DNA of 64,000 bases from an uncultured Gemmatimonadaceae bacterium (GCA_963829055.1 CAWHHI010000009.1:108042-172041), one strand, 5' to 3'. Counted from the first letter of the stretch, positions 1 through 64,000 are shown. Numbers and translations: made by a program. Notes: a model not told the origin generated them from the sequence alone.

Positions 1-603
1 CGCGAATGGAAGCGACGCGAGGCGCTCCATCGTCGGACAAATGGGTTCGTCCTTGTCGGCCGTGTACCATCCCCAACCCGCCGCCGGCCCGAGCCCCTTC
101 TCGCGATACAGCGACGCGAGCACGGAATCCGTGCCGTACGAGATCCCCGCGGTGTGAGTGAGCAGGTCGCGGATGGTGATCCGGCGCTTGGCCGGCATCT
201 GCTGGCCGTTCACCATGACGGTCGTGCGGGCGTACGCGGGAATGAAGCGACTCACGGGATCGTCCAGCGCGATCTTGCCTTCCTCGAACAGGATCATGGC
301 CGCGATGCTCGTTAGGGCCTTGGTCTGTGAGGCGATCCGGAAGAGAGCGTCGGTCGTCATGCGTCGCCCACTCTCCTTGTCGGCCCAGCCCACGGCGCGC
401 TCGTAGACGACCTTCCCGTCGCGCAGCACGAGCCCGACCGCACCCGCGATCCTGCTGCTGTCTGTCTGCTGTAGGAGATACGCGTCCACGCGCTGCAAAC
501 GTTCGGCGGAGAAGCCGTTGTCCGAACGCGCGCTGGCGCGGCTCGCGGCCTGCGCGCTGAGTAGCGCCGGGAACGCTGCGACAAGGAGAAGGGTGCGCTG
601 CAT
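1..603 (-). CDS. beta-lactamase-family serine hydrolase, N-terminal ~200 codons (gene continues past the left edge)
   Basis: Hand translation of the minus strand from ATG 603..601 gives MQRTLLLVAAFPALLSAQA (signal peptide) ... ALFRIASQTKALTSIAAMILFEEGK (S-x-x-K active-site motif). The ORF is open at the window edge, so it is absent from the ORF track. Confidence 0.75.
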   Translation of the reverse strand, partial: MQRTLLLVAAFPALLSAQAASRASARSDNGFSAERLQRVDAYLLQQTDSSRIAGAVGLVLRDGKVVYERAVGWADKESGRRMTTDALFRIASQTKALTSIAAMILFEEGKIALDDPVSRFIPAYARTTVMVNGQQMPAKRRITIRDLLTHTAGISYGTDSVLASLYREKGLGPAAGWGWYTADKDEPICPTMERLASLPFA

Positions 604-641
604 GGGAGTGATGGCTCGGTGTAGTTTTGGATTCGAGGCGC

Positions 642-1809
642 TCACGCGGCGTCTTCTCCCAGGCCGAGCTCTCGCAGAATCTCCGCCGAGTGCTGGCCGA
701 GCAGCGGGGGTGGGCGCCTGACGCGCGGCGGCGTCTCGCTCATCTTGAGCGGAAAGCCTAACGTGCGCACTCGGCCGGCAACCGGATGGTCGATTTCCTC
801 GATCATGTGACGGGCGTGCGTGTGTGGATCCGCGAAGACCTGGGCGAAGTCGTGAATCGGCCCCGCTGGTACGCCTACGGCGAGCATGCGCTCGACCCAG
901 TCCGCGGTGGTACGCGCGGCCAGTGCGACCTCGATCTCGCGCACGAGCGCGGGGCGGTTCGCCATTCTCGCGGCGTTCGTCGCGAAGCGCGAATCGGACG
1001 TGAGCGTCCTCGCGATCCAGCGTCGCGCAGAGTCGCTCCCACTGCAGCGACGTGAGCGCGGCGAGCGTGATGTACCCATCGCTCGTGCGGAACGCCTGGT
1101 ACGGTGCGCTCAACCGGTGGGCCGAGCCCATCGCGTGAGGCGCACTGCCCGTCGCCCAGTACTCGGTCGTTTCCCAGACGGACATCGCGAGCGCCGACTC
1201 GAACAGCGACGTGTCAATGTGCTGCCCGCGACCGGTTTTACCACGCGCGATGAGCGCCGCGAGTATGCCGTTCGTGGCAATGAGACCGACCGACAAGTCC
1301 GCGATCGGTACGCCGCATTTCACGGGCGTCCCGCCGGGCTCACCAGTCACGCTCATGATGCCGCTCATGCCCTGCGCGATGAGGTCGAAGCCGGGTCGGT
1401 CCGCGTACGGGCCCGTCTGCCCGAAGCCGGATATGCTCGCGTAGATGAGACGCGGATTGAGCGCCGACACGGTTTCGTAGTCCACGCCGAGCCGCTTCGT
1501 GACGCCCGGGCGGAAGCTCTCGACGAGCACGTCCGCCGTGCGAACGAGCGCCGTCATCACCGCACGGTCGGAGTCCCGTGTGAGGTCGAGGACGATGCTG
1601 CGCTTGTTTCGATTGAGCGCGAAGAACGGAGCGTTGTCGTTGCCAGGCATCCGCAACTGCGCGCCGCCCATCGATCGCGAGAGATCGCCGGTGGGCGGTT
1701 CGACCTTGATGACGTCGGCGCCAAGGTCGCCGAGCTGCATGGTGCAGAACGGGCCGCCCATGACCTGCGTGAGGTCGACGACGCGCACGCCGTCGAGAGG
1801 GAGAGTCAT
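642..1809 (-). pseudogene. CoA-transferase family III (CaiB/BaiF-like), frame broken once near 1005 in this assembly
   Basis: Hand translation from ATG 1809..1807 gives MTLPLDGVRVVDLTQVMGGPFCTMQLGDLGADVIKVEPP...GFGQTGPYADRPGFDLIAQGMSGIMS. The C-terminal third is ORF 642..1079 (SRFATNAARMANRPALVREIE...HPVAGRVRTLGFPLKMSETP). The two parts join only with a 1-nt offset. Confidence 0.75.
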
Positions 1810-1834
1810 GCGGGCAATTCTAGCTCGCCGCCGA

Positions 1835-3592
1835 TCATTTCACGACGCCCGCATCGAACACGACCTTCCCGTTGAAGATCGTCATCAGACACTTCGCGTC
1901 CTTGATCTCGGCCGTCGGCACCGAGTAGAAGTCGCGATCCCACACCGCGAGGTCCGCGTACTTCCCGACCTCGATCGACCCGATCTTCTTCTCCAGGAAC
2001 ATCTGCCGCGCCGCCCAGATCGTCACCGCGCGCAAGCGCCGTGCGCACGTCCACCGACTCTGCGCGGCCGAACGGGTCCTTGCCGTAGACGCCTAACAAC
2101 GGCTCGCGCGCGATCGCGGCCCAGATGCCATAGCGCGCCGGGAACGGCGTGACGCCGATAGTCGGAGCCGTTGCGCCCACGTCATGCCCTTCGCGCGGAA
2201 CGTCTTGAATGGATTCAGGCGAAGCGAACGCTTCGGCCCGAAGTTGCCCGCGTACGTGTCGCCGAGCCACCAGGTGAACGTCGCGGATGGCTCGGGATAG
2301 CCGGCGTCGAAGTCGCGCTGCAGCCTCGCCATCATGTCGATCGCGTGATCCGTCGGAATGTTCGAGTGGATGATCGCGTGCCGGAGGCCCTTCTTCGGAT
2401 TCTCGCGCATCGCCTGATCGTACGTGTCCACGACCCAGTCGATGCCGCGGTCGCCGATCGAGTGCACCGCGACGTGCATTCCGGCATCGTGGTACATGCG
2501 GATGAGCATGCGGATCGTGTCGGGATTCGACGCCGGATATCCGCGATTGCCCGGATCGGTGCCGCGATAGTCCTTGTTCCAGTCGTCGTAGAGCCACGCC
2601 GTGCGCGCGCCGCCCGAGCCGTCGATGTAGAGCTTCACGCCGCCGGCGATCACGTGATCGTCGCCAGTGCGTCTCGTACGGCTTCGTCATCGCCGCACGC
2701 TCGGCGATCAGCTCGCTTCGCGCTCATCGACCGAGCGCCCGCCTGACCAGAGCGCGAACACGCGCACGTTGAGCGCGCTGTCCTGCTCGACCTTCTTGTA
2801 GATGTCCCACGTCTGCGACGAGATGCCCGGGATCCTTGAGGCCGGTCATCCCCTCGGCGTTGAACGCCTTCACGAAGTCGCGGATCCCCGCTTCGGTCTC
2901 CGCGGCCGAGCGCTGGCGGGACGAGGCGACGCACGAGACCCGCCGCGCCTTCGCGCAACAGGCCGGTCGGCGTGCCGTCGGCGTTGCGGTCGATCGTGCC
3001 GTTCGGCGGATCCCGCGTGTCCTTCGTGACGCCGGCGAGGCTAAGCGCGACGCTGTTCGCGACGACGTAGTGGCCGGTGGTCTGCGTGAGCACGACCGGG
3101 TTGTCGGGCGAGACGGCGTCGAGGTCCTTCGCCGTGATGACACGTCGCTCGGTGAGCTTGCCCTCGTCCCAGCCACGTCCCTGAATCCACGCGCCCTTGG
3201 CGCGACGTGGCCACCTTCGCGCGAATCGCGGCGGCGACATCCGCGATGCTCTTGACGTTCGGATAGCTCAGGTCGATCACGTACAGGCGGTCGGCGCCGC
3301 CGCCGGAGAAGTGCGCGTGCGCATCGAGCAATCCGGGCGTGACGGCGCGGCCGCCGAGGTCGATGCGTCGTGCGTTAGGCGCGGCGGCGCGTTCGACTTC
3401 AGCCGTCGACCCGACAGCGACGATGCGTCCGCCAGCAATACCCACGGCCTGTGCGATCCGATCGTTCGTATCGACGGTCAGCACGCGACCGTTCACGAGG
3501 ATGAGATCGGCGCGTGGCTGCTGCGCGCTCAGCGGTGCCGCGATCGCGATGCACGTCGCGAGAACGAGCGAATGCTGCTTCATGGACTTCAT
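1835..3592 (-). pseudogene. secreted amidohydrolase (Amidohydro_3-like metal-dependent hydrolase), at least 6 frame disruptions
   Basis: Collinear pieces lie in different frames: 3041..3670 (MKSMKQHSLVLATCIAIAAPLSAQ signal, TPGLLDAHAHF = H-x-H), 2650..3240, 2724..3176, 2093..2653 (MYHDAGMHVAVHSIGDRG), part of 1806..2690, and 1835..2035 (GKYADLAVWDRD C-terminal motif). Confidence 0.7.
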
Positions 3593-3811
3593 GGACACGT
3601 GGGAGCGATGTAGGTCTGGAATGTGATTGGACGCGCCGGGCCGGCATGGCCATTGTGAGGTCGCCACCAACGGTGTGGTAGACGATCGCGGAATGTCCAG
3701 CGAGTGGCGACCGGTCGGTCCGGGCCGTATGATATCGCGCCGCCCGGTTCGGTTCCCGCTGTCGGGCGAAGCAACCCAGAGGATTTCTCTCTCTTGTCCG
3801 GAGGATGCTGT

Positions 3812-5088
3812 ATGCTGCGCGCAGCTCAGTTACGCCTTGCCCTCGCCGCCATCGCAGCTGTCGCCCTGGCCGCCTGCCAGGAAGACCAGACTCCGACGGC
3901 CGTGACCGTCCCCGCACAACCCTCGGCAAGCGCGCAGTCGTCGCAGGGCAACGGGCCACCCACGGCCGACGAACTCGATCGGCAGGTGCCCGGTTTCGGT
4001 GGCTTCTTCCTCGATCGCGCGGGAGAGCCGACCGTGTACCTCGACGCGTGGTGCGAGCAGGGCTCCGGCGGAGCGCGCGCTCGGTGCGTATCTCGCGGCG
4101 CGCGGCCTGTCGAACGCGGCGGTGCACGTGCTCGAGGCCCGGTACGGATGGCAGCAGCTCCAGCGCTGGCAGGACGCGGCGACCGACGGTGCCTTCGAGG
4201 TCCCCGGGACGGTGTTCGTGGACAACGACGAGACGAGCAACCGTGTTCGCATCGGCGTCGAGAACGTGAATGCGGTCGGACAGGTTCGGGCGGCGTTGGC
4301 TCGCCGCGGTCTGCCTGACGACGCGGTGATCATCGAGCGCGCCGACCCGATCGTGCAGGTGGCGTCGCTCCAGAACGTCGTCGACCGCCCGGTGCGCGCT
4401 GGCGTTCAGATCAATTTCCCCGGATTCCTCTGCTCGGTCGGGTTCAACGCGACGTCGGGCGACGTAGAAGTCGTTCATCACCGCGTCGCACTGCACGACC
4501 AAGCAGGGTGGTGTCGAGAGCACTCCGTATTGGCAGCCGCTCCAGTCGGTGAATGGCACGCAGATCGCGACGGAGGTTGCGGACCCGGTCTACTACGAAG
4601 GGCGCGGGCTGCCCGGGCGGCAAGACCTGTCGCTACAGCGACGCTTCGCGTGCGGCGTACAGCGAACGGCGCCAACCAGGCGCTCGGCCTGATCGCGAGG
4701 ACGAGCGGGCCTAACAACAACAGCCTCGAGATCACCGGCTCGTTCACGATCACGTCGGACGACTGCGCAGACACGATCGGCGGATGCCTGCCAGTTGGCG
4801 CGACGGTGAACAAGGTCGGGCGCACCACCGGATGGACCAGGGCACCATCACGAACACGTGCGTCAACACCGGCGTGCAGGGCAGCAGGATCGTCCAGCTC
4901 TGCCAGACGTTCGTGTCGGCCGGAGTGGGCGGGGGCGACAGCGGCTCGGACGTCTTCCAGATCACGGGCGATGCACGAGCGTGAAGCTCGCTGGGATTCT
5001 CTGGGGCGGGAGCTCGAGCGGGACTCAGTTCGTGTTCAGCCCGTTCGGCAACGTGACGAGAGAGCTCGGCGCGCTGACCACGCACTGA
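3812..5088 (+). pseudogene. secreted S1 serine protease (alpha-lytic / streptogrisin-like) with pro-region, at least 6 frame disruptions
   Basis: ATG 3812 follows GGAGGA, and the N-terminus has a lipobox-like signal MLRAAQLRLALAAIAAVALAAC. FLCSVGFNA, SFITASHCT (catalytic His, hand-translated frame), GGGDSGS (catalytic Ser) and ILWGGSSSG are found in different frames (ORFs 3704..4318, 3999..5120, 4784..4984, 4858..5088). Confidence 0.65.
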
Positions 5089-5107: not shown

Positions 5108-5486
5108 GACGTTCACCTAACGCTGGAGGCACCGGCCCGCGCCCGTTCGGGCGAGCCGGTGCCTCTCGTTTTAACGGTCACGAACACCGGCACCGCTGTC
5201 CGTGACGTTGCAGCTCCTCGGCCGGAAACCCACCGCCGACTTCCGCATCTCGGACGCAGACGGCCGCCCAATCTGGACTCGCCTTCGCGGCCAGACGATG
5301 CTCGGCGCGCTTCGCCTCTATCCGCTGGATGCAGGAAAGGCACTCGTATTCCGAGCGGTGTGGGATGGGCGTGACGACGGTGGAAGCCTGGCGCCGCCGG
5401 GCGAGTACCTGATCCGCGGCGTGCTACTGACTGACGACCCCGGAGGGCTGCCTTCCTCGCCCCTCCGGCTGCGCGTTGACGCCTAA
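5108..5486 (+). pseudogene. BsuPI-like proteinase-inhibitor domain fragment (no usable start, one frame offset near 5205)
   Basis: ORFs 5159..5374 and 5202..5486 give PLVLTVTNTGTAVRDV / ADFRISDADGRPIWTRL...GKALVFRAVWDGRDDGG..PGEYLIRG, which resembles the BsuPI inhibitor beta-sandwich. It lies directly after the protease gene. Confidence 0.4.
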
Positions 5487-5504
5487 CGCCTCCGGGATCG
5501 ACGC

Positions 5505-6557
5505 TCACACCCGCGGCATCACCTCGGCTGAAAACAGCTCCATACTGCGTAGCACCTGCTCGTGTGGGATGAGGCCGCCGAAGTTGAACCAGCAGATCAC
5601 CCGCCCGGGGTTGAGCTCCTCCCTCACTTGCTGGAGCCGTTCCACGCACGCGGATGGCGTGTCGAAGATCCCCGTCACGGTGTTCACACTGTCGTACGTC
5701 ATCCCGCAGATCTGCTCGAGAATCGCCTGCAGCTTCGGCCGCTCCGACTCAGGAGACTTCGCCACCCATGTCGCCGCCACCGACGCCGCCGTCTCCGCGA
5801 ATTGCCTGACACTCGGCGCGACGTCACGCTCGACGCGACGCCGGTCGCTCCCGACGTAGATCGGCATGAGCAGCGTTAGGTCCTCGCCCGCAGCCGTCGC
5901 ATGGCCGGCGTCCGCGCGGGCGCGGCGGTAGAGCGGAATCAGCTCCCGCAGCTTCGGGAGCGGGTTGACGTTCGAGGCGACGAAGATCGGGTAGCCCTCA
6001 CGGCCGGCCCACGTGGCGGTGTCTGCGCTGTTGGCGGCAACACGAATGGGTGGGTGCGGCTGCTGGATCGGCCTCGGCGCGAGTGCGAGGTCGTCCGCGT
6101 GGAAGAATCGCCCTCGGAACGAGAACCGCTCGGTTGTCCACGCTCGGCGGATGTAGTCGAGCGACTCTACCATGCGGTCGCGGCTCTCGGACATTGGCAC
6201 GCCGAAGCCGCCGAAGTGGCTCGGGTTGCCGCCGCGCCCGACGCCGAGCTCGACACGGCCGCCACTGAGGACGTCGAGTGTCGCGATCTCCTCCGCCACA
6301 CGCATCGGGTGCGCGAGCGGGAGCTGCACGATCGCGGTGCCGAGGCGGAGGGTGGTCGTGCGCGCCGCGATGGCCGCCAGGAGGAGGGTCGGGCAGGGAA
6401 GGATCGATACCGTCGGGTTGAAGTGGTGCTCGACCGGCCACACCGACTCGAATCCGAGCGCTTCGGCGCGCGTTGCCTGCTCTATGGTGTCACGATACCG
6501 TTGCGCGGGCGACTGGCCCTCGGCACACGATAACAGGTAGTGAAGTCCGAACTTCAT
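5505..6557 (-). CDS. LLM-class (luciferase-like) flavin-dependent oxidoreductase
   Basis: Intact ORF 5505..6575. The likely start is MKFGLHY at 6557. The ALGFESVWPVEHHF and GGRVELGVGRGG motifs are typical of luciferase-like monooxygenases. Confidence 0.85.
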   Translation of the reverse strand: MKFGLHYLLSCAEGQSPAQRYRDTIEQATRAEALGFESVWPVEHHFNPTVSILPCPTLLLAAIAARTTTLRLGTAIVQLPLAHPMRVAEEIATLDVLSGGRVELGVGRGGNPSHFGGFGVPMSESRDRMVESLDYIRRAWTTERFSFRGRFFHADDLALAPRPIQQPHPPIRVAANSADTATWAGREGYPIFVASNVNPLPKLRELIPLYRRARADAGHATAAGEDLTLLMPIYVGSDRRRVERDVAPSVRQFAETAASVAATWVAKSPESERPKLQAILEQICGMTYDSVNTVTGIFDTPSACVERLQQVREELNPGRVICWFNFGGLIPHEQVLRSMELFSAEVMPRV

Positions 6558-6734
6558 CGTTCTACTCCTCGCCAATGCTCACTGTGCGTCGACCGCGACC
6601 GCCGCGGGTTGCACGGGAGGATGGTACGCGCGCGTGCCACGCGGGCGTATCTGGCGACTGGCCGATCTTGTCCCTGACGATGGTTGGGTCGGGCGCGTCG
6701 CGACGCGCCATGCGTCGCCTAACGAACCGGAATG

Positions 6735-7984
6735 CTACCTGGGCCGACTATCCGGACGGGGGCGGAGCCGCGCGTAGGCGAAGAGGGGATTCACCGCGGC
6801 TTTGCCTTGCACGAGCGCCGCGACGTGCTCGCCGAGCGCCGGCCCCATCTTGAAACCGTGCCCGGAGCCGCCGCCGACGAGCCACACGTTCTCGAGTTGC
6901 GGATGCTTGTCGATGAGGTAGTTGCCGTCGCTCGACGCCTCGTACTGACACACCCGCGCTTCCACGAGCGGCGCGTTGGCGAGAGCAGGGAAGCGCTCCG
7001 CCACGATTTTCTTCGCGCGCGCGAGGCCGTCGGCGCTCGGGACACGGTCGATCGTCGTGGGGTCGACTTCGTCGCCCGCTGTATCATCCGCGACCTTGAG
7101 GCCGCGTCGCTCGAAGCTCGGGACGCCGTAGACGAGCCGCTCGCCGATGTGCACCCATACCGGTTGCGTCGGGGCGTCGAATCGGCGTGTCACCCGGCGG
7201 CGTGCCGAAGAAGAAGACCTCCTGTCGAGTCGCGACGATCCGGCGGCCGACGACGTCGGGGAACACCTGCCCCATCCACGGGCCGCACGCGAAGACGAAG
7301 CGGTCGGCGTCGAGAGCGCTGCCGGCCGGCAAGCCCGATGTTCGTTAGGCGACTGCCGGCCGTCCTTCCAGGGCGGACCATCGCCTGCCTGTACGTTCCG
7401 CCTTCGCGCACGAACGTCTCGCGCACGAGCTCGCACGCAACGCGCGCTGTGAGAAACCCGCCGTCCGGTTCGTGGAACACGCTGCGCACGTTCTGAAAGC
7501 CCATCTGCGGGAAGCGGCGCCGAGCCTCGGCCAGTGGCAGCTCTTCGAGGCCCAGCCCGACCGCCTTCATGGGCGCGATCGACTTCCGCACGTAACTGTC
7601 GTCGGTTGCGCACATCCAGACGGCGCCGGTGCGGTAGTAGATCTGGCGCTTCCACCGCTGCTCGGCCTCACGCCACAGCTTCATGGCGCGAGCCGCCATC
7701 TGGCTGTAGTCGGGGACGCCGTTATACACCCCGCGGATGACGCGAGTCTCGCCGCCTGACGACGCGCGCGAGTTGCCGGCACCCCACGCGTCCACGAGCG
7801 TTACGCGCATGCCTGCGCGGAGAAGCGAGAGCGCGGTCCAACCTCCGAATGCGCCAGCACCCACGACGATGACGTGCTCCTGCGATGGCCGGAGCGCGCC
7901 GAATCGCAGCACGAACGGCGCCGCGACAGCGGAGGCGACGAACGAGCGCCGCGATACGTGGCGAGATGCAGGCGTTGTTGTCAT
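6735..7984 (-). pseudogene. FAD-dependent oxidoreductase (DAO / sarcosine-oxidase-like) with Tat-like signal, 2 frame disruptions (~7330, ~7195)
   Basis: ORF 7190..7996 contains SRRSFVASAVAAPF and VIVVGAGAFGGWTA (GxGxxG). The protein continues in ORFs 7084..7332 ([18 protein letters not shown]) and 6735..7655 (VWLVGGGSGHGFKMGPALGE). Confidence 0.7.
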
Positions 7985-8004
7985 TCCAGCGAGCACCAGC
8001 CGCT

Positions 8005-8111
8005 GTCATCCCGAGGAGTGAAACGACGAGGGACCTTCTGTAACGTCATAGTGGCACGACTGCCACGAGTACGTTACGAGAAGATCCCTCGCCTTGCTCG
8101 CTCGGGATGAC
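8005..8111. repeat. REP/MITE-like inverted-repeat element of the GTCATYCCGAGCG...CGCTCGGRATGAC family
   Basis: GTCATCCCGAG..GAGGGA at 8005 pairs with TCCCTCGCC..CTCGGGATGAC ending at 8111. There is an inner palindrome GTGGCACGACTGCCAC. The related arm TCATTCCAGCGAGC lies at 7981. Same family as 34576..34660 and 58068..58239. Confidence 0.6.
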
Positions 8112-8207
8112 ACGGTGGTTCGCGCGAGATGACGCCGCATTCTTCCTCCGCCCTCCGCCGTCCGTCCGCCGTCCGCCCCTCCTTCCCAAGGCCTCCTTCC
8201 TCAGGCC

Positions 8208-10937: not shown

Positions 10938-12167
10938 TCAATGACGGACCGCCGGACGCTTAGTGGCGCGCCTAACGGCGGTCTCCTTGCGAGCTCGTCC
11001 GTTCTGGCGTGCGTGCTTGGCAGGCTCGACCAGTTTCCAGAACTGCCCCTCGCCAATCACCTTCACGGCGTGGCCGCGCGCGGCCAACCGGCGGATCTCC
11101 ATGAGCTTGAGACCTCCAACCGTGCCGGCGACCTGCAACGCGTTAGGTCTGCCGCGCACCAGCACGTCCGTCGCCGAGCCAGGCTTGGACTGCACGACCG
11201 CGCCCGCCTTCCTCGCGGCGGCGATGGCTTCGCTCCTCGGACGGCTCAGGAATCCCGTGAAGGACACCCGCTTCCCGACCAGGCTTCCGACGCGACCGAG
11301 ATGAAGCTCCGTCGGCCGTTGCCGAAGGGCCGCAATGAGCTCGCCCGCGGCTTCGTAGCGCTTTCCGCGTACGCCAAGGCATCGGTGGATGACTTCCTTG
11401 AGGTGGTCGCTGCACGGCAGGCCGCGCACGTCACGACTGCGCATCGGGCTCGTGATGTCGCCACGCAGCAGCATCGCGGCGATCTGCCCTATCTGATAGA
11501 TGTCGTCGCGCTGCTGCCAGCGGCGGACCTTCCCCCACGCGATCTCCGTCGGCGCATTGAAGACGTTGAACGCGTCAGCGGTGACGCCACGTCGGCTGAG
11601 CTGATGTGTCGCGATACCGAAGTCGCCGAGCTTCAACTGCTCGTCACCGCAGACGAAGACGTTGAACGGCGTGAGGTCGCGGTGCATCGCCTGCCCACGA
11701 TGCACGACGTCGAGCGCGCGCAGGATGGCCGCGATCTCACGGCGCACGAACCGCTCGGACTGCGCGCCCTTGCGAGCGAGCCAGGCGCCGAGGTCCCCGT
11801 GTTCCGCGTATTCCATCGCGAGGCAATACCGCATGCGCGACCCATCGACTTCGGCGAACCGGTCATACACGCGAAGCGCGCGGGATTCTCGGCCGAGCAG
11901 CTCGGCGAAATACGCCTCGCGAAGCCACGCCGTGAGGCGATCGCTGATCTTGATGCAGACCTGCTCGGGGAGGTCGTCGCGCGGTGTGGGCGTGGCGAGA
12001 TACACCTCGCCAAACCCTCCCTTGCCGATCAGCCGGTCGAGTCGGTACGTGCGACCGCTCTCGTAGCTATAGGCTGTCGGGGCCGTCCCCGGGGAGGAAA
12101 GCGCGGCCGGCGCGGCCGCCCCATTGTCCTTGCTGTTCTGCGGAGAAAGTGGGCGGTGCGTTGCCAT
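10938..12167 (-). CDS. Ser/Thr protein kinase with C-terminal BRCT domain
   Basis: Intact ORF. Kinase motifs are GKGGFGEV, VCIK, MHRDLTPFN and GDFGIA. The C-terminus LVGKRVSFTGFLSRPRSEAIAAARKAGAVVQSKPGSATDVLVRG...LKLMEIRRLAARGHAVKVIGEGQFWKLV looks like the LigA-type BRCT fold. Confidence 0.8.
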   Translation of the reverse strand: MATHRPLSPQNSKDNGAAAPAALSSPGTAPTAYSYESGRTYRLDRLIGKGGFGEVYLATPTPRDDLPEQVCIKISDRLTAWLREAYFAELLGRESRALRVYDRFAEVDGSRMRYCLAMEYAEHGDLGAWLARKGAQSERFVRREIAAILRALDVVHRGQAMHRDLTPFNVFVCGDEQLKLGDFGIATHQLSRRGVTADAFNVFNAPTEIAWGKVRRWQQRDDIYQIGQIAAMLLRGDITSPMRSRDVRGLPCSDHLKEVIHRCLGVRGKRYEAAGELIAALRQRPTELHLGRVGSLVGKRVSFTGFLSRPRSEAIAAARKAGAVVQSKPGSATDVLVRGRPNALQVAGTVGGLKLMEIRRLAARGHAVKVIGEGQFWKLVEPAKHARQNGRARKETAVRRATKRPAVRH

Positions 12168-55606: not shown

Positions 55607-56637
55607 ATGTCAGGCCGGGTGTCGTTTCCGCTCGGCGGGATGCTGTTGCTGTGCGTGATGGCTGCGTGCGTTGCCGATGAGCCTACGGCGTCGCGGCCGA
55701 CTCCGGGTGTGAGCCTCGGGAAAGCGCCGCCACCGTCTGTCACCGTCACGTCCACCGACCCGACGTACGCCTTTCAGGGCGACTCGGTGCTGACGGTGCA
55801 CGTGAAGGGAATCGGGATTTACCGCGGGCGCACATACGTCGTGGCCGGTCAACGGCGATACGACGCACGTGCACGAGATCAGCACGACGTACGTGAGCCC
55901 GACGGAGGTCGTCTCGACGATCAAGGTGGACCTCAACGCGCCGACGGCGCTGTACGATGTCGTGGTGACGCTCGTTGGTGGGAAGAAGGGAGTGGGCGCG
56001 GAGCTGTTTGCCGTCAAGTCAGTGAACGAGCGCCAGCAGTTGCCGATCCCGATCGCGGTGACCGTGGACGACGCGGGCGCGCTCGGAGCCGTACAGGATT
56101 CGGAGCGACGGATTGGGTGAGTATGTCGACGGACAGCCGGGATGACGGCGTTTATCGACCAATTCGGGAATCTGCAGATCTCGCCTAACAACGGCCAAGC
56201 GACGACGCCGGCACAGCGCAGCCTGGTCTTCGACTTCAGCGTGCCGGCCGACCCGCTCAACACGTATCGCCCCGATGTGTCGGGTCAGACCAACTTCAAG
56301 ATCCTGACGAACAATGTCGGGCTACCCGAGGATTCAGGACCTCGGGGTGAATGGCATTCCGTCTTCGGGGTGCTATCGCCTGACGTTCTCGTTCCGGAAC
56401 GTTACGACGCACTATCCAGCGTCGATTTCAACACGAGCATCAACGCGCAGGCTGCTTTCGTGCTCATCACGCGAACCAGCGCTTCGACGTGGACTGTCGT
56501 GCCAGGATGCGTCGTGCGGCGCGCATCCGACCTGGGGCGCGTTCAGGAGCCAGGATCTTCACGAGCAAGAACGCGCCGGTCGTAGCCCCGTGGGAACTAC
56601 AGCCTGCCGTTCTCGATACGGATTCGCGAAGTTGTAG
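55607..56637 (+). pseudogene. hypothetical lipoprotein (Ig/TIG-like beta-rich), at least 4 frame disruptions; 3' end uncertain
   Basis: ORF 55607..56188 begins with the lipobox LLLCVMAAC. Collinear beta-rich pieces lie in ORFs 55869..56120, 56142..56585 and 56314..56637. Confidence 0.4.
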
Positions 56638-56699
56638 CGGCTCGCGGTCGAAGCACCTGGGAAACGCGCGGCACCGAAAGACGGTGTCGCGCGTTCTTC

Positions 56700-57661
56700 G
56701 TTAGGCGCCGGCGGCTGAGGATCCGTGATTCCCGCCTTCACGAGCGCGAGGCCGAACGCCCATTGCCCGTCCGCCGTCGCAATGCTCAGCGCGCCCGCCC
56801 GCATTTGCTGGTAGATCTCACAGGAGCGAGAGCGTCGAGTCGAGCGTCTCCGCTCCGGTTGCACCGCCGTGCCCGCCCTGTCGCGCCAGGTGCATGAATG
56901 CCGCGCCGCAGAGCACTCCCACCACACGCCGGTCGTACACGAACCGCGCGGGAAGCGCAGCGAACGAATTGCCAGCGTATGCCGAGAGCAGCTCGACGGC
57001 AGGTTGCTTCATCCATGCGGAGGAACAGCGAAGCGGCCGCGAGATCGTAGTACGGATCGTTAGGCCCCGCGGTATCCCAGTCGAGCAGCACGAGATGCTC
57101 GCCGTCGTACACGAGGTTCGTCGGATTGACGTCGTTGTGGCTCAGCACCGGCGCGCGGTCGCTCGGCGTCGGGTCCTCCTCGAGCACGCGTCGCACGGCG
57201 TCGCTGAAGAACGCAGGCACGGCGAAGCCCGCCAGCGGTCCGTGCCAGATAGTCGCGAGAAACTCTCGCGGGTCCAGCGCATCCGCGTCGAGCGGCAACG
57301 GGATGTCGTGAATGCGGCGCACCGTCTGGCCAAGCAGCGCGATGGCCGCGTCGTGCGTGCGTGGGTCCCAGTAGTACGCCGGAAACGATCGGTCCGCGAC
57401 GAACGCGCTCAGCACGGCGCGCCGATCCTCGTCGACGTGGATGATGCGCGGCGCCACGCCCGCGTCCGCGGCGAGTCGCTGGATGTGAAGCTTGCGACTC
57501 CATGCCGCGAGTGGTTCACCCTCGCGCGCGACCTTCATCACGAACGTCTGTCCGCTGGCGTCAACGCGATACACGCCCGCGCCGGAGAGTCCCGCGGCAA
57601 TCTTCGTGATCGTGGTGGTGTCGCCGCGGAGTTCGGCGGGCAGGCAGGCTTCGAGGGTCAC
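56700..57661 (-). pseudogene. APH/choline-kinase-fold phosphotransferase, 2 frame disruptions; 3' end uncertain
   Basis: ORF 56786..57661 contains GLSGAGVYRV, VLSHNDVNPTNLVYDGEHLVLLDWDTAG (Brenner motif and DxD). The C-terminal continuations lie in ORFs 56818..57012 and 56559..56927. Confidence 0.65.
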
Positions 57662-57783
57662 GATTGACTCTGGCGCATGGTTGCGGTCAGCGGGCGTGGG
57701 TGCCTCATCCGTCGGAGGCAGACCTAGCTCGCCCGCGTTAGGACGAGGAGCGGTTTCAGGGCGTGCGCCGGGCTAGCGAAGAG

Positions 57784-58067: not shown

Positions 58068-58239
58068 GTCATTCCGAGCGGAGGCTTGTCATTCCGAGCG
58101 AGCGGAGCGAGTCGAGGAATCGCGATCGTCCCGATAGAGGGCCCTCTACCGGGACGAGTCGCGATTCCTCGACTCGCCGCTTCGCGGCCTTCGCTCGGAA
58201 TGACATGGTTCCTCGCCTGCGGCCTCCGCTCGGAATGAC
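58068..58239. repeat. full-length REP/MITE-like inverted repeat (double GTCATTCCGAGCG arms around the perfect palindrome TAGAGGGCCCTCTA)
   Basis: The left arms start at 58068 and 58088 and the right arms (CGCTCGGAATGAC) end at 58204 and 58239. The centre is 58135..58148. The tail GGCCTCCTTCCTGAGGCCTC (58255..58274) is also found at 8190..8209. Confidence 0.7.
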
Positions 58240-58275
58240 ACTGCTCCTTCCTATGGCCTCCTTCCTGAGGCCTCG

Positions 58276-59161
58276 TTAGGCCTCGTTGCCGATTGCCAGC
58301 GGATCGACATCGAGCGTGCCGTGACTCACCGGCCAGACCTCGCCCCTAACGAGAAGATTCCCATCACCATCCTGGACGACCGTGAGCTTGCTTGGCCGTC
58401 CGGCGAACCGCCCCTGCGCAATCTCGATCGGAACGCCTGCCTCAGCGAGACCGCGTGCTACCAGATACGCCGCGGCGGGACCGGCGGCGCTGCCCGTCGC
58501 GACGTCTTCCACGAGCCCGAGGTTGTCCCACGTTCTCATCTCACGACCATCGACGGCGAGAACCAGTGGAAACTTTGCGCCTAACGTTTCGAGCTGCGAT
58601 TCGAAATCGGTCCCGCGGATTTTCGCTCTCCCCAACGCCGCCGGCGAGAGAGGGACGATCAGATACGGTAAGCCAGTGGAGATGACCTGGGCGTCCATTC
58701 CACTGGCCACATCGCTTTCGTCGAGCCCGAGCCGCGACAGGATCGGCGCCAACGCGCGGCTCGAAATGGGAGCCCCAACGACCGGCTTCCCCTGATTCAT
58801 CTCGCACACGTAATGCGTGCCCACCTTCGTCGTCGTGACCGCAAGGTCGCCGTGCGGAACCGAGATCACCCACGAGCAGAACTTCTTCACCGGGGCCTGA
58901 GTGCGGTGCAGTACCGCCGCTGCTCCGAGCACAGGGTGCCCCGCGAACGGCAACTCTTCCTCCACCGTGAAGATCCGCGCCTTCGCTCCCATAGCCGAGA
59001 TGCTCGAGAGGAATATGGATTCGAATTGCTTGGTCTCCTGCGTCAGCCGTTGCATGACTGACGCCGGCCAACGCTCCGTGTTCAGGAACACGGTCAGTCC
59101 GTTTCCGGTGAGCGGGCCTGTCGCGAACACATTCGACGTGGAACAGCGTCGGAGATGGCAT
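58276..59161 (-). pseudogene. PhzF-family isomerase/epimerase, one frame offset ~59130 near the N-terminus
   Basis: ORF 58276..59130 contains FATGPLTGNGLTVF, FAGHPVLGAAAVL and ATGSAAGPAAAYL. The first 10 codons (MPSPTLFHVE) lie in the frame of ORF 58541..59161. Confidence 0.75.
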
Positions 59162-59895: not shown

Positions 59896-62238
59896 CTACC
59901 CCTTCGGACGCAGCAGCTCGCGGAACGACGGCTGCCCACCGAGCAGTGCAAGGTCAATGTCGGTGTGCAGGTCGATGCCATAGCAATGGCCTCGCGCGAA
60001 TGCGCCGCGGAGCGCGGAGATCGCCTGATCCGAGTCGCCGAGGATGGCGAGCACCCGGGCACTGCACACTAACTGGAGCCCGAACCGGAACCGCCCCTTT
60101 TTCGACTGCAGCGTCTGCAGCGTGCCCCTCGCCGTCACGTCGTCGCCGAGGCGGGCGGCGATCGTACCCGTTAGGCCGATGATCTCGAGGTCCTCCGGCA
60201 ACTCGGCGGCGAGCTCGCGCGCCACCCTCGCGGCATTGGTCCACTGGCCGGCTTCGCAGTAGGCATGTGCGAGGGCGTGGCGATCACGGGCGCCGGGACG
60301 CCCGCCTGGTCGCTGCTGCTGGTCGGCGTACCATGCGATCGCTCGCTGCGCCAACGCGATCGCTTCGGCCGCGTGACCATGCGCGCGCAGTTCCCGGGTC
60401 GCATCGAGCATGACGTCCCCAGCGTCCGCGAATCGATCCGGTGGAAACGCGCACGCCTCGTCGATGCAGCGACTCACGGCCTCGAGGTTCCCGACGGCCG
60501 CGTAGGCGCGGGTCTCGTACAGCACCGCGCTGATTGCTTCCGGGTGATGCGCGCGCCCACGCTGCGCGGCCTCGAGCTCGCGATCGTGCTCGCCCAGCAT
60601 GTGATAGGCTTCGGTCAGCCGACGCCAGTGCGGAGTCCAGGAGGGAATCCACCCCTGGCCGGGGTCGAGCCGCGTTAGGGCTTCGACCGCCGCCTGCGGA
60701 TGATTGCAGAAGAGCGCCTGCCGGCCGAGTTGCGAGAGCACCTCCGAGTTGGGCACCTGCGCCGCCGCGAGCCGCACGATTCTGAGCGCCGCGCCTTGCT
60801 GGCCGTCGAGACACGCCGTGTAGTACTCGCACGCGAGCTTCTCCAATGTCGAGAGGTTCCCTCCACGGGAACGCGCGGTCAGCTCGGTCAGGATCGCCTC
60901 CGCCTGCTCCCATTCGCCGAGGTTGCAGCTCGCCTGCATCGCCCACAGCGCCGCGAACGTGAAGCCTTCGCGGGCGCGTGCGGCGCGGAGCAGGTGCGGA
61001 ATTGCCGTGCGGAAGTCGCCGCGGAGATGGAGCTCGACGCCTAACGCCAGCTCGAGGTGCGCATCGACGTCCGGCGCCTGCGCGACGGCGTCAGCCAGCG
61101 ACGCGAATCGCGGATCGAAGCGCCCTGCCAGCGCGCCGCAGACGCGCCGGCGCAGCTCGTCGGCCGCGTCCCACGGCTGCAGGCGCGGCGCGGCCACGTC
61201 GCCCACGGTGTCGAGCACGCGGCCGCCGGGGTCGCTGACCTTCGCCTGGAAGCACCACGAGTCCCCGCGGAGGAAGTATGAACCGGTAACGACGAAGCCA
61301 GCGTTTGGCAGCGTGGCGCCCAACCCGCTCGCGTGGTCCGTCGTCACGACGGCGACCGTCCGACTCCGGACGAGCCCCTCAGCGATGGCGTCGCACACCA
61401 GGCGCCCGACGTAGTCCGACGACGGATCGCCGCCGAGGTTCACCAGCGGCGCGATGGTCACGCGCGGTGGATCCGGCGCGGCGGCGACCTCACTGGCAGC
61501 GTGATGAACGCCTGGGCGGGCCCGCGTGCGGATCGCCTCGATCAGCGCTTTCGTATCGCTCGCGGGCTCATCCCCCGTCGCGCGCTCGAGACGCTGCGCG
61601 AAGGCAGTGTAGGCCTCCAGCGCGGCCGCCGTGTCGCCCACGCGGTCCAGCAGCGTGACCAGCTGACGCAGTCCCGCCTCGTCGTCGATGCCTAACGACG
61701 TAGCCCAGCGGGCGCTCTCGACTGCGCCCGCCGCGTCGCCTGCGCGCTCGCGTCGGTCGGCGAGCGCCCAGGCCGCCCGCGTAGCGCGTCGGCGAAGGAA
61801 CACGCGCATGTCCTCGAGCCACCGATCGAACTCCGGCGCGCCCTCGAGGGCGAATCCGGGAAGCAGGTCGCCGCCATAGAGCGCCATCGCCTCGTCGAGC
61901 GCGCCGCGCGAGAGCGCCGCCTCGAACGCACGGGCGTCGCACCACAGGCGAGATTCGTCCGCAGCCAGCATGTCCGTGCCGCGCGACAGCACGACATCCG
62001 CGCCGAGCGCCCGCCGCAGCTGGTGTACCGCCTGACGCAACGCATTGCGAGCGCCCGACTCGGTAAGCTCAGGCCAGAAGAGCGGAAGCAGGAGGTCGCG
62101 CCGCTGGAAGCCGGTCGTACCCGTCATCGCCAGGTAGGCGAGTAGCGCGAGTCGCTTGGGCTGTACGAGGACAGCCGTGACTTCGCACCCGTGGGGATCG
62201 CGCAGGTCCATCTGGCCGAGCACGCGCAGACGGAACAT
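59896..62238 (-). CDS. winged-helix + BTAD (SARP/AfsR-like) transcriptional regulator with large TPR-like C-terminal region
   Basis: Intact 780-aa ORF. The N-terminus is MFRLRVLGQMDLRD..VQPKRLALLAYLA...ARNALRQAVHQLRRALG, followed by a BTAD-like segment (DARAFEAAL...ALYGGDLLPGF...FDRWLE). Confidence 0.8.
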   Translation of the reverse strand: MFRLRVLGQMDLRDPHGCEVTAVLVQPKRLALLAYLAMTGTTGFQRRDLLLPLFWPELTESGARNALRQAVHQLRRALGADVVLSRGTDMLAADESRLWCDARAFEAALSRGALDEAMALYGGDLLPGFALEGAPEFDRWLEDMRVFLRRRATRAAWALADRRERAGDAAGAVESARWATSLGIDDEAGLRQLVTLLDRVGDTAAALEAYTAFAQRLERATGDEPASDTKALIEAIRTRARPGVHHAASEVAAAPDPPRVTIAPLVNLGGDPSSDYVGRLVCDAIAEGLVRSRTVAVVTTDHASGLGATLPNAGFVVTGSYFLRGDSWCFQAKVSDPGGRVLDTVGDVAAPRLQPWDAADELRRRVCGALAGRFDPRFASLADAVAQAPDVDAHLELALGVELHLRGDFRTAIPHLLRAARAREGFTFAALWAMQASCNLGEWEQAEAILTELTARSRGGNLSTLEKLACEYYTACLDGQQGAALRIVRLAAAQVPNSEVLSQLGRQALFCNHPQAAVEALTRLDPGQGWIPSWTPHWRRLTEAYHMLGEHDRELEAAQRGRAHHPEAISAVLYETRAYAAVGNLEAVSRCIDEACAFPPDRFADAGDVMLDATRELRAHGHAAEAIALAQRAIAWYADQQQRPGGRPGARDRHALAHAYCEAGQWTNAARVARELAAELPEDLEIIGLTGTIAARLGDDVTARGTLQTLQSKKGRFRFGLQLVCSARVLAILGDSDQAISALRGAFARGHCYGIDLHTDIDLALLGGQPSFRELLRPKG

Positions 62239-62409
62239 GGACGCCTCGCGAGATGACGGTCTCGAAACGTGCGGTTGACGCCGCCCGGCGCATGGCGTGT
62301 GGCGAACATACGAGTGCCTACACCCCCGTGCAACTTCGCTGCGATGATAGAAGACGGACGGCGTGACTGAGTTCCGCCACGCCGCCCGTGTGATCGTCGG
62401 CCTTCCGAT

Positions 62410-63663
62410 CTACTGTCGTTCGGCGATCACTTCGCCGCGCGAGATCGCGAGATGGTAGGTCACGTTCAGTGACTTCGCGGCTTCACGAGCGAGGATCTGG
62501 TGGCCCGCCGCGCTCGGGTGAACGCCATCGAGCGAGATGAACGGACCGAACGGCTCGTCCGACGTCAGCAGCGTCGTCGCGCTGAACGGCGACTTCAGGC
62601 CACGCTGCCCGTACAGCGGCTCGAGGTCGAAGAAGGCAAAGCCATTCTCGGCCGCGACGTCCCGGATATGCGCGTTCATCTCGACCAGCTGCGCTTCCAG
62701 CGCGCTGACATCCGCCGGGGTCAGCACGTAGTCCTGCGTGCCCGGGACGTCGGCACAGCTCAGCGTGACGGCCGGCTGTCCCGCGATCGCTGCCGCGTAC
62801 GCGCCGACGACTTTCGCGGGAACGTAGATGAGGTTCTCGCTCCCGCTCCCGGCGCAGTCCGCACTCACGAAAATGCCGAACTGGGCGAGCTCCGCTCGAT
62901 TGGCGTCGAGCTCCGCGCCACGCCGCAAGCTCGGGAAGTTCCCGACGTCGGATAGCAGTCCGACGAGGAGCACCTTCGCGCCCGCGGTCTTCACGCCAGC
63001 GATGAGCTGGTCGTACGCGGGCCGCCACGCAGCCGTCGGGACGATCGTTAGGCCGGGGGCCACGAGTCCGGAGCGCGCCCCGAGCACCTCGTTCACCCCG
63101 AACTCCACGGAGACGAGGTCCGGCTGCAGGGCGAGCATCGCCGTGAGCTGCGTCTGTCCGGCGCCGAGCACGCGGCTGTAGAACGCCCCGCGGAGCGGCC
63201 ACGATGCCGGTGGTGGCGACTGCGGCGTGGTCGCCAGCGCGTTGGCGGTGATCGCTTCGGAGATGGCCAGGTTCTGCGTCGGCGCGACGATTCCGTTCAC
63301 GAGTGGCGTGCAGACGCTGCTGCGGACGAACGGGGATTCGCCATTCACGCGTCGGAGCGACGCGAGCGGCGATGCCAGCGGCGGCTGGCAGCCCGCTGCC
63401 TGCATCAGAGGTTGGGAGAAGGGCACACCGGCGAGCGCCGCGAGCTGCGCGGGCCAGGATTGCGCCTGATCGGCGCCAACGACGCCATTCGACATCACGC
63501 CCATGCTCAGACTGGTCCCCATGGCGACGTAGGTGCCGACGCGAGAGTGTTCGCCGAAGCTGAAGGACGGCGGCTGACGCGTTGACGCGGATGTCGGGTC
63601 GGTCGCGGCGTCGGCGCAGGCGGCGACCAGCGCCAGACACAAGAGCGGAAGTGTGCGGGTCAT
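62410..63663 (-). CDS. SGNH/GDSL-family hydrolase lipoprotein
   Basis: Intact ORF with lipobox LCLALVAAC. The SGNH blocks are YVAMGTSLSMG, FGVNEV and SLDGVHPSAAGHQ. Confidence 0.7.
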   Translation of the reverse strand: MTRTLPLLCLALVAACADAATDPTSASTRQPPSFSFGEHSRVGTYVAMGTSLSMGVMSNGVVGADQAQSWPAQLAALAGVPFSQPLMQAAGCQPPLASPLASLRRVNGESPFVRSSVCTPLVNGIVAPTQNLAISEAITANALATTPQSPPPASWPLRGAFYSRVLGAGQTQLTAMLALQPDLVSVEFGVNEVLGARSGLVAPGLTIVPTAAWRPAYDQLIAGVKTAGAKVLLVGLLSDVGNFPSLRRGAELDANRAELAQFGIFVSADCAGSGSENLIYVPAKVVGAYAAAIAGQPAVTLSCADVPGTQDYVLTPADVSALEAQLVEMNAHIRDVAAENGFAFFDLEPLYGQRGLKSPFSATTLLTSDEPFGPFISLDGVHPSAAGHQILAREAAKSLNVTYHLAISRGEVIAERQ

Positions 63664-64000
63664 GATGTCCCATCCTTTGGCAGGAGCCGTCTGCTGCGGC
63701 GCTGGTCGGGATGGCCAGGCCGCGGGACGTCCGTAGGTGCCGAGGACAGTACGAGCGCCGCGTTATCCGCCTGTGTCCCTGCCGTTATCTGGGCGATGCG
63801 AGCGTGGCCCGCGGGAGTTATGGAACTCCCCTCACCGGCGGTCTGCGTCGTGGAAGAGCGGCGGCGCGATGCTGTGGTCGTTAGGCGCTATGGGCCCGAA
63901 CGCGCGCGGTGCGGACAGTCCTGGCAGCTCAGTCGCCGCGTGGTGCGACCGTCGGCCACGGGACGCCGGCGTCCCCCAGGCGGAGCGCGTCCCTGCGGAT

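Follow-up and report, generated by a model that had tools for sequence, protein, structure and literature searches.

Why should one asymmetric 8-bp word recur about once per kilobase in the DNA of an uncultured soil bacterium? The question arises from a 64,000-bp stretch of assembly GCA_963829055.1 (CAWHHI010000009.1:108042-172041; 67.4% G+C), hereafter the window, in which GCCTAACG and its reverse complement CGTTAGGC are dispersed through genes and intergenic DNA alike. Homologues of the TonB-dependent receptor encoded at 8074-10743 place the window in Gemmatimonadaceae. Our tentative answer, reached by analogy, is that (G)CCTAACG may mark self-DNA and build up because uptake or recombination is biased toward it, as with the DNA uptake sequence (DUS) of Neisseriaceae and the uptake signal sequence (USS) of Pasteurellaceae. 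The sequence is new, as is the phylum in which it occurs (Gemmatimonadota, uncultured soil bacteria); hyper-abundant genomic words are a kind of phenomenon that is already known. The original prediction knew of no such word in this kind of bacterium, and full-text searches on the 8-mer, the 7-mer, the 6-mer plus methyltransferase, and Gemmatimonadetes uptake sequences likewise gave nothing relevant. For comparison we used the DNA around orthologues of the 8074-10743 receptor gene in exact-protein assemblies, species-representative genomes and JGI metagenomes; these loci are designated by L numbers.

A recount returned the 67 core coordinates listed in the original prediction, 29 as CCTAAC and 38 as GTTAGG, and its 43 exact 8-mers, which comprise 18 copies of GCCTAACG and 25 of CGTTAGGC. 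Markov models of orders 0-3 predict, for both strands together, 2.4, 1.1, 0.9 and 2.7 copies of the 8-mer and 21, 6.4, 4.4 and 16 copies of the core. The more than 10-fold over-representation claimed for the 8-mer therefore holds (43 vs. 0.9-2.7), and the figure of about 20 expected cores corresponds to the order-0 value within a range of 4-21. Enrichment is approximately 15- to 50-fold, varying with the null model. The base following CCTAA is C in 67 of 67 window cases, and 60 of the cores have a G on the 3' side and 49 on the 5' side. The word accounts for 67 of the 76 occurrences of CTAA in the window, and GCCTAACG is the sole entry among the 30 commonest 8-mers that is not G/C-rich coding filler. 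It is non-palindromic, differing from its own reverse complement.

Genes were called with a codon-usage model, giving 52 open reading frames (ORFs), and products were assigned by Pfam; they include TonB-dependent receptors with a carboxypeptidase-regulatory domain, a SusD-like protein, Ser/Thr kinases, MacB/FtsX permeases, peptidases and amidohydrolases. The codon-shuffled null suggested as a check in the original prediction was run by shuffling synonymous codons within each gene 500 times, which yielded means of 5.7, 3.1 and 0.9 for the 6-, 7- and 8-mer (maxima 15, 9 and 5), against 46, 41 and 28 observed in ORFs. This null is conservative, because rare codons contributed by the word itself are kept. 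The observed counts exceeded every one of the 500 synonymous and codon-order shuffles, which rules out a codon or dipeptide artefact.

A logo of 275 copies from 16 loci contains ten positions with information, the remainder being at background: G (75%), CCTAAC (invariant by construction), G (87%) and then a position at which G is disfavored. Information content is approximately zero outside -1 to +7, as expected from the earlier statement that copies do not align beyond 8 bp, and we therefore regard the element as a word of 7-8 informative positions rather than the tip of a longer repeat. A fragment of a longer mobile repeat is ruled out by this logo together with the orthologue alignments described below.

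Copies occur in ORFs (n = 46, 0.85 per kb) and, about 2.5 times more densely, outside them or on stop codons (n = 21, 2.09 per kb). All four stop-free frames are occupied: CCT-AAC (Pro-Asn) 11 times, n-CTA-ACG (Leu-Thr) 11 times, GTT-AGG (Val-Arg) 6 times and n-TTA-GGn (Leu-Gly) 18 times. The predicted independence of orientation from gene strand is borne out (22 of the coding copies read with the gene and 24 against it), and the predicted presence in every allowed frame, in intergenic DNA, on stop codons and in a hairpin loop at 28091 was confirmed throughout. Since the word is indifferent to strand and frame, an RNA-level or translational role is rejected. The individual copies, together with the one long stretch that has none, are listed here; the sign after each coordinate pair is the orientation of the CCTAAC core, and that after each ORF is its strand.

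310-317 (-): CCCTAACG, coding, ORF 4-1809(-), GCC CTA ACG (ALT)
756-763 (+): exact GCCTAACG, coding, ORF 4-1809(-), GTT AGG (VR)
2091-2098 (+): GCCTAACA, on the stop of ORF 2093-2653(-), within a frameshifted amidohydrolase gene
3373-3380 (-): exact GCCTAACG, coding, ORF 3041-3598(-), CCT AAC (PN)
4709-4716 (+): GCCTAACA, outside called ORFs
5115-5122 (+): ACCTAACG, outside called ORFs
5481-5488 (+): exact GCCTAACG, contains the TAA stop of ORF 5202-5486(+)
5874-5881 (-): ACCTAACG, coding, ORF 5505-6557(-), GAC CTA ACG (DLT)
6717-6724 (+): exact GCCTAACG, intergenic
7343-7350 (-): exact GCCTAACG, coding, ORF 7190-7996(-), CGC CTA ACG (RLT)
8232-8239 (+): ACCTAACG, coding, TonB-receptor ORF 8074-10743(-); common to L001, L085 and L086
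8748-8755 (-): ACCTAACA, coding, ORF 8074-10743(-), CCT AAC (PN); position common to 8 orthologues
9736-9743 (+): ACCTAACG, coding, ORF 8074-10743(-), ACG TTA GGT (TLG); CTC/CTG Leu in word-free orthologues
9861-9868 (-): exact GCCTAACG, coding, ORF 8074-10743(-), CCT AAC (PN); CCC/CCG AAC in relatives
10525-10532 (-): ACCTAACG, coding, ORF 8074-10743(-), GAC CTA ACG (DLT); common to L085
10970-10977 (+): exact GCCTAACG, coding, ORF 10938-12167(-), GTT AGG (VR)
11141-11148 (-): ACCTAACG, coding, ORF 10938-12167(-), CCT AAC (PN)
11149-19107: 7,967-bp stretch with zero copies; kinase-PD40, LysR, aldo-keto reductase and flavodoxin genes; the longest gap (P = 0.007 if copies were placed at random)
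19108-19115 (-): exact GCCTAACG, intergenic
19330-19337 (-): CCCTAACG, intergenic
19597-19604 (+): TCCTAACG, coding, ORF 19432-20949(-), TCG TTA GGA (SLG)
20994-21001 (+): exact GCCTAACG, intergenic
21537-21544 (+): GCCTAACT, coding, ORF 21012-22733(-), CAG TTA GGC (QLG)
22821-22828 (-): exact GCCTAACG, coding, ORF 22816-23415(-), CCT AAC (PN)
23059-23066 (-): exact GCCTAACG, coding, ORF 22816-23415(-), CGC CTA ACG (RLT)
24240-24247 (+): GCCTAACA, coding, ORF 23641-26751(+), CCT AAC (PN)
25298-25305 (+): exact GCCTAACG, coding, ORF 23641-26751(+), AGC CTA ACG (SLT)
26812-26819 (-): exact GCCTAACG, coding, ORF 26808-28055(+), ACG TTA GGC (TLG)
27745-27752 (-): GCCTAACC, coding, ORF 26808-28055(+), TGG TTA GGC (WLG)
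28091-28098 (-): ACCTAACG, loop of a perfect 14-bp-stem hairpin (28079-28111) between convergent genes
28457-28464 (-): exact GCCTAACG, intergenic
29606-29613 (+): exact GCCTAACG, coding, ORF 29322-30725(-), GTT AGG (VR)
30770-30777 (+): exact GCCTAACG, contains the TAG stop of ORF 30772-32835(-)
31321-31328 (-): ACCTAACG, coding, ORF 30772-32835(-), AAC CTA ACG (NLT)
31626-31633 (-): exact GCCTAACG, coding, ORF 30772-32835(-), CCT AAC (PN)
33364-33371 (-): exact GCCTAACG, coding, ORF 32920-33453(-), TGC CTA ACG (CLT)
34076-34083 (-): exact GCCTAACG, contains the TAA stop of ORF 34078-34512(-)
35454-35461 (+): exact GCCTAACG, coding, ORF 34665-36077(-), GCG TTA GGC (ALG)
36195-36202 (-): exact GCCTAACG, intergenic
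36563-36570 (+): exact GCCTAACG, intergenic
38007-38014 (-): exact GCCTAACG, coding, ORF 36731-39556(+), ACG TTA GGC (TLG)
39686-39693 (-): exact GCCTAACG, coding, ORF 39601-40845(+), ACG TTA GGC (TLG)
40211-40218 (-): exact GCCTAACG, coding, ORF 39601-40845(+), GCG TTA GGC (ALG)
40993-41000 (+): exact GCCTAACG, intergenic
42421-42428 (-): exact GCCTAACG, outside called ORFs
44662-44669 (+): exact GCCTAACG, coding, ORF 44384-45304(+), CCT AAC (PN)
45364-45371 (+): exact GCCTAACG, contains the TAG stop of ORF 45366-46217(-)
47481-47488 (+): exact GCCTAACG, coding, ORF 46225-47523(-), GTT AGG (VR)
48947-48954 (+): exact GCCTAACG, coding, ORF 47630-50308(-), ACG TTA GGC (TLG)
49133-49140 (+): ACCTAACG, coding, ORF 47630-50308(-), GCG TTA GGT (ALG)
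50173-50180 (-): exact GCCTAACG, coding, ORF 47630-50308(-), CCT AAC (PN)
53132-53139 (-): CCCTAACG, coding, ORF 52501-53256(+), ACG TTA GGG (TLG)
53337-53344 (-): exact GCCTAACG, coding, ORF 53231-55495(+), GCG TTA GGC (ALG)
53577-53584 (-): exact GCCTAACG, coding, ORF 53231-55495(+), GCG TTA GGC (ALG)
55479-55486 (-): TCCTAACG, coding, ORF 53231-55495(+), TCG TTA GGA (SLG)
56183-56190 (+): GCCTAACA, coding, ORF 56142-56585(+), CCT AAC (PN)
56699-56706 (-): exact GCCTAACG, intergenic
57058-57065 (-): exact GCCTAACG, coding, ORF 56786-57661(-), CCT AAC (PN)
57736-57743 (-): TCCTAACG, intergenic
58274-58281 (-): exact GCCTAACG, overlaps a 7-bp hairpin and the stop of ORF 58276-59130(-)
58344-58351 (+): CCCTAACG, coding, ORF 58276-59130(-), GTT AGG (VR)
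58579-58586 (+): exact GCCTAACG, coding, ORF 58276-59130(-), ACG TTA GGC (TLG)
60169-60176 (-): exact GCCTAACG, coding, ORF 59896-62238(-), GGC CTA ACG (GLT)
60673-60680 (-): CCCTAACG, coding, ORF 59896-62238(-), GCC CTA ACG (ALT)
61039-61046 (+): exact GCCTAACG, coding, ORF 59896-62238(-), GCG TTA GGC (ALG)
61690-61697 (+): exact GCCTAACG, coding, ORF 59896-62238(-), TCG TTA GGC (SLG)
63046-63053 (-): exact GCCTAACG, coding, ORF 62410-63663(-), GGC CTA ACG (GLT)
63879-63886 (-): exact GCCTAACG, intergenic

Coding copies distort codon usage. Of the rarest codons of the genome, 18 of the 26 TTA in the window (69%) and 11 of the 36 CTA fall within the word, and it encodes 37% of the window's Pro-Asn dipeptides, about 10% each of Leu-Gly and Leu-Thr, and 5% of Val-Arg. 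The TAA or TAG within it serves as the stop codon of 6 of the 52 ORFs. The copy at 2092 might appear to have caused a nonsense mutation in an amidohydrolase gene; translation rejects this candidate, since the local frame is already shifted and the stop is therefore not in the true frame. As a separate observation, CTAG is strongly avoided in the whole window (20 on both strands vs. 106-149 expected under order-1 and order-2 Markov models), and TAG is nonetheless the stop codon of 17 of the 52 called ORFs.

Confinement to the window, which the original prediction had named as grounds for discarding the idea, is not what we found: related contigs of many separate metagenomes are rich in the word. 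It is clade-specific and all-or-none between related lineages, and metagenomes are the sole source of sequence for the clade. All loci with a receptor at least 77% identical in amino acid sequence to that of the window carry it, at 0.75-1.5 per kb (25 copies over 22.6 kb in L124, for example), and they derive from numerous independent samples of soil and rhizosphere. Where the receptor is 68-75% identical, some loci have the word (L004 at 2.5 per kb, L113 at 2.3, L100 at 0.93, L126 at 0.49, and L012 at 0.37) and in others it is essentially absent (L122 from GCA_037720885.1, L099, L003, L005, L007, and L002). Below 66% identity, in other Gemmatimonadales, Longimicrobiales and Acidobacteriota, it is at chance level (0-2 cores per locus). 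Positive loci number 24, from at least 15 distinct lineages, with densities of 0.37-2.5 per kb, mostly 0.75-1.5. Taken together, the positive loci contain CCTAACG 238 times in 242 kb, vs. 4 times in 402 kb of negative Gemmatimonadota DNA of similar G+C. L121 (Ga0070681_10002958), the locus of a distant paralogue of the receptor in another word-bearing genome, has 1.55 copies per kb, so the word is independent of this gene neighborhood. A neighbor-joining tree of the receptor groups the main positive loci in one clade and scatters the remaining positives; as this is the tree of one gene, such patchiness could mean either that the system was lost and gained or that the gene was transferred.

Two of the comparison loci have features of their own. 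The word-free metagenome-assembled genome (MAG) that contains L122 (JBBJNN010000011.1) encodes a complete type I restriction-modification locus (HsdM, HsdS, and HsdR; 16525-22661) about 4 kb downstream of the orthologous receptor gene, with RES toxin and HNH nuclease genes upstream. An apparently analogous word in L047, from an Acidobacteria MAG (CALMZP010000105.1), was rejected as such, being two tandem rather than dispersed (GGTTAAC)n arrays; these heptamer arrays, at 3656-3872 and 19899-20107, each lie near a partial inverted array.

When receptor genes of positive and negative lineages are aligned by codon, copies fall where relatives have near-matches, one or two substitutions apart and without insertions. 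The substitutions are often synonymous and run against codon preference (CTG/CTC Leu to the rare CTA/TTA); examples are CCTGACG or CCTCACG to CCTAACG, CGCTCGGC or CGCTGGGC to CGTTAGGC, and CCG/CCC-AAC to CCT-AAC. The window's receptor gene has five copies; L085 (83% amino acid identity) shares four of them, L086 two, and L083 and L004 a single one each. Six further copies are found elsewhere in the L004 gene. A strain 97.7% identical at the DNA level (L001) shares seven of seven aligned copies and has one extra, produced by a single G-to-A change. The alignment of orthologues proposed in the original prediction gave a consistent direction: in ten diverged positive relatives the hexamer was retained in place in 52 of 100 comparisons, vs. 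26% for all control hexamers and 29% for those with three A/T positions, with retention above controls in nine of the ten, although the relatives are not phylogenetically independent and P values for retention therefore overstate the case. Copies outlast neutral sequence, yet they turn over.

One-off variants of the word, compared between the positive clade and the negative one, are not depleted. CCTAACA is 10-fold more frequent, CCTAACC 4.7-fold, CATAACG 4.2-fold and CCTGACG 2.6-fold; changes at T3, A5 and C6 show no enrichment. This pattern looks like a recognition profile combined with mutational decay, rather than conversion of a single depleted precursor. Within the 11.6 kb of L121, GCCTAAC and GCCCAAC occur 15 times each (1.29 per kb each); elsewhere GCCCAAC is found at 0.16 per kb in negative genomes and at 0-0.25 per kb in other positive loci. 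L121 thus seems to favor GCCYAAC, a possible dialect, and this dual word suggests that the specificity of a reader can drift.

No locus among 13 of 6-64 kb has significant strand polarity: the window stands at 29:38 and the 12 others are near 1:1, the most extreme being 5:15 (P = 0.04, uncorrected). Runs of orientation in the window number 33, vs. 33.9 expected by chance. Polarity like that of Chi and the FtsK-orienting polar sequences (KOPS), for which the original prediction had proposed plotting orientation against replichore, is ruled out by these counts for loci of this size. Copies are also evenly spaced. With the 7,967-bp gap set aside, the coefficient of variation (CV) of window gaps is 0.69, vs. 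0.98 ± 0.11 for random placement, and only 2 gaps are below 150 bp, vs. 9.6 expected. The result is similar when the null holds the coding and non-coding copy numbers fixed (0.69 vs. 1.00 ± 0.11, P = 0.0002), when coding copies are taken alone (P = 0.011) and in 12 further loci (pooled CV 0.72 vs. 0.94 ± 0.06; 15 gaps below 150 bp vs. 31.8 expected). A terminator function is ruled out by the small number of hairpin cases (two) and by a generic terminator scan that came out at or below the shuffle level.

The copy-free 8 kb encodes two Ser/Thr kinases, one with PD40 repeats, and reaches a G+C of 0.727. It is present in the conspecific contig L001 and is not at this position in relatives at approximately 80% identity. 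A foreign origin finds no support in its tetranucleotide signature.

Because these measured properties match published properties of DUS and USS, we rank a self-DNA signal first. Uptake-enhancing sequences have been described so far only in Neisseriaceae and Pasteurellaceae. Like the word, DUS (GCCGTCTGAA and its dialects) is non-palindromic, occurs about once per kilobase in both orientations and has no replichore skew (PMC2397512, PMC1939737); it too is found in and outside genes with a non-coding excess, is clade-specific and is maintained between relatives. Its mean distance of about 1,150 nt matches the length of conversion tracts, and it is rarer in strain-specific insertions (PMC2397512). 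A possible parallel to the latter is the single copy-free stretch of variable synteny, and one to the DUS dialects is the dual word of L121. The two are unrelated in sequence and belong to different phyla, and for DUS an uptake bias and a receptor, ComP, are known. Published features of DUS and USS are even spacing without orientation bias, 65% and 35% of copies in ORFs, a non-coding excess and approximately 10% inverted repeats (PMC1939737). USS (AAGTGCGGT) further resembles the word in being far above chance and mostly in ORFs in frames that the protein tolerates, in the enrichment of its one-off variants, and in that molecular drive can explain its accumulation (PMC1939737). Unlike USS, the word has no helically phased AT-rich flanks, and it puts an A/T-rich core into a GC-rich genome, so that rare codons are forced.

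Under the mechanism we propose, a sequence-specific DNA-recognizing component of a horizontal-transfer route would prefer double-stranded fragments that contain the word in either orientation. The route would most likely be type-IV-pilus/competence uptake, but any equally biased step of transfer or recombination would suffice. Alleles gaining the word by point mutation would enter other cells and recombine there more often than alleles without it, and molecular drive would accumulate it wherever the protein tolerates it, until roughly every fragment of about 1 kb had one. That the recognizer belongs to an uptake or transfer pathway is inferred by analogy only. Type IV pilus genes have been reported in Gemmatimonadota of all environments but marine ones (PMC10581226); within the 64-kb window, we found no genes for a type IV pilus or secretin, ComEA, ComEC or DprA.

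Several points weigh against a self-DNA signal of this kind. Our literature searches found no report of competence in Gemmatimonadota. With 7-8 informative positions, the word is shorter than DUS (10-12) and USS (9 plus flanks). No close inverted pairs were found and only the copies at 28091 and 58274 are associated with hairpins, whereas terminator-forming pairs are common for DUS. Positives are patchy outside the main clade of the single-gene tree, many close relatives are word-free and no substitute word was seen in word-negative sister lineages, unlike the family-wide dialects of Neisseriaceae. The tetranucleotide signature of the copy-free stretch is not an outlier, as foreign DNA might have been. 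Finally, all measured features would also fit an intracellular recognition site.

That alternative, which we consider somewhat unlikely, is that an abundant protein inside the cell binds or recognizes the word (in nucleoid organization, replication, or discrimination of strand or site in repair), and that weak selection on each site, rather than transfer bias, keeps it at about one copy per kilobase. The original prediction had listed a DNA-binding protein among three candidate roles, and we keep it as a rival. An invariant 6-bp core with softer flanks suits a monomeric DNA-binding domain, and even spacing, few close pairs and conservation of position above controls would be expected if selection favored coverage of the whole chromosome. 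Karlin made such a proposal for USS because of its even spacing (PMC1939737), and an intracellular role is still a candidate for HIP1 (GCGATCGC) in cyanobacteria. HIP1 is likewise a hyper-abundant octamer of coding and non-coding DNA with non-random spacing and conservation beyond codon effects (PMC5861425), but it is a palindrome with a methylated GATC/CGATCG core, whereas the word is asymmetric. Against an intracellular site, selection acting on single copies would need to outweigh codon preference at each of thousands of positions, and the density range among positive lineages is 7-fold. The existence of close relatives without the word (L122, L099, L003, L005, L007) means that such a function would be dispensable or recently invented. 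In both families where the matter is settled, moreover, the word proved to be an uptake signal.

The word may instead be a sequence-encoded mark of self, placed about every kilobase and read inside the cell by a new system that uses neither methylation nor Chi polarity; we regard this as an outside chance, in which the reader might be a defense nuclease or a repair or recombination pathway able to distinguish resident from foreign DNA. In Campylobacter jejuni, uptake of self-DNA is marked by RAATTY methylated by CtsM. This, too, is a short motif acting as a self-DNA mark, but it is methylation-based and the motif is of ordinary rather than hyper-abundant frequency.

It is improbable that the word is a Chi-like signal that tames a nuclease of the RecBCD/AddAB type on linear DNA, so that word-bearing fragments survive and recombine and drive results. 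Chi sites are 5-8 nt, non-palindromic, lineage-specific and over-represented, and the word shares these properties with them and with KOPS/architecture-imparting sequences (AIMS). Its spacing is compatible with the length of recombination tracts, and mixed orientation would be tolerable if incoming fragments are to be protected, since that requires copies in both directions. However, known Chi and KOPS are strongly co-oriented with replication, in contrast to the lack of skew in our 13 loci, and both are enriched only a few-fold, not 15- to 50-fold.

We think it equally doubtful that the word is the footprint of a modification or repair system, such as Vsr-like very-short-patch repair or a methyltransferase-linked bias, as suspected for HIP1. 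Its all-or-none distribution between close relatives is what a gained or lost enzyme would produce, and GCCCAAC is about 2-fold rarer in most positive than in negative loci and co-enriched in L121, making a C-to-T relation conceivable. However, precursors with a single mismatch show no depletion, CCTGACG, CCTAACA and CATAACG being enriched instead, and a GCCCAAC baseline of 0.16 per kb could not supply about one copy per kilobase. Repair of T:G to C:G cannot make an A/T-rich core in a 67% GC genome, and site-by-site conversion does not predict even spacing; the word is also non-palindromic, and our literature searches found no link between it and a methyltransferase. Of the three roles originally suggested, the Vsr-like one thus gains no support, because its precursors are undepleted and the effect of the word is to introduce rare, A/T-rich codons where the genome is GC-rich. 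The comparison with uptake or self-recognition was strengthened by clade specificity, the lack of polarity, even spacing of about 1 kb, the non-coding excess, enriched variants, retention and the possible dialect.

That protein or codon composition produces the word as an artefact, or that it is the conserved end of a repetitive extragenic palindromic (REP) element or miniature inverted-repeat transposable element (MITE), has raw abundance alone in its favor and is hardly conceivable for a word that exceeds all 500 shuffles, occupies four frames, both strands, non-coding DNA and the rarest codons, has flanks of near-zero information in 275 copies and differs by one or two substitutions between orthologous sites; REP elements, bacterial interspersed mosaic elements (BIMEs) and MITEs share its many dispersed copies, but are structured, intergenic and 20-150 bp long, whereas the word lies mostly in genes and has no conserved flanks.

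The window has other features. A separate REP/MITE-like intergenic element, composed of GTCATTCCGAGCG units, is found at 34628-34661 and 58068-58248, with direct pairs 18-35 bp apart and inverted groups with arms of 18-43 nt; the unit occurs 12-18 times per 10-20 kb in the relatives L086, L089-L092 and L083. The region 19432-40845 is a dense neighborhood for scavenging of proteins and peptides, with two SusC-like TonB receptors (one followed by a SusD-like gene), amidohydrolases, an S9 prolyl oligopeptidase/DPP-IV, an M20 peptidase, a BNR-repeat protein and an FKBP isomerase. At 51066-55495, a gene for an extracytoplasmic function (ECF)-type sigma factor precedes TPR proteins and a 754-aa TPR-CHAT (caspase-like) protein, which together may be a signaling or defense-like module. 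Compared with the independent short-read assemblies L001 and L087, which agree with each other, the window has single-base indels at 7187, 7326, 8142, 8192 and 8368. These frameshift the C-terminus of the TonB receptor and the DAO oxidoreductase. Split ORFs lie at 1835-3598, 6735-7996 and 16300-19077, the amidohydrolase and aldo-keto reductase genes being split as well; the cause is either assembly errors or real pseudogenes. A link between split genes and the word was rejected, as the 1-bp indels are 9-168 bp from copies without a pattern.

Whatever its function, the word distorts codon usage, and as an all-or-none lineage marker it could aid binning and the spotting of foreign DNA. Its gain and loss, its differences in density and its possible dialect among close relatives form a natural series for locating the responsible gene by phylogenetic profiling. 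If the word is a self mark read inside the cell, it would be a new kind of genome-wide signal and not another uptake sequence. If it is an uptake signal, it would be the first candidate uptake-enhancing sequence outside Proteobacteria, and sequence-selective gene exchange in soil would become directly testable.

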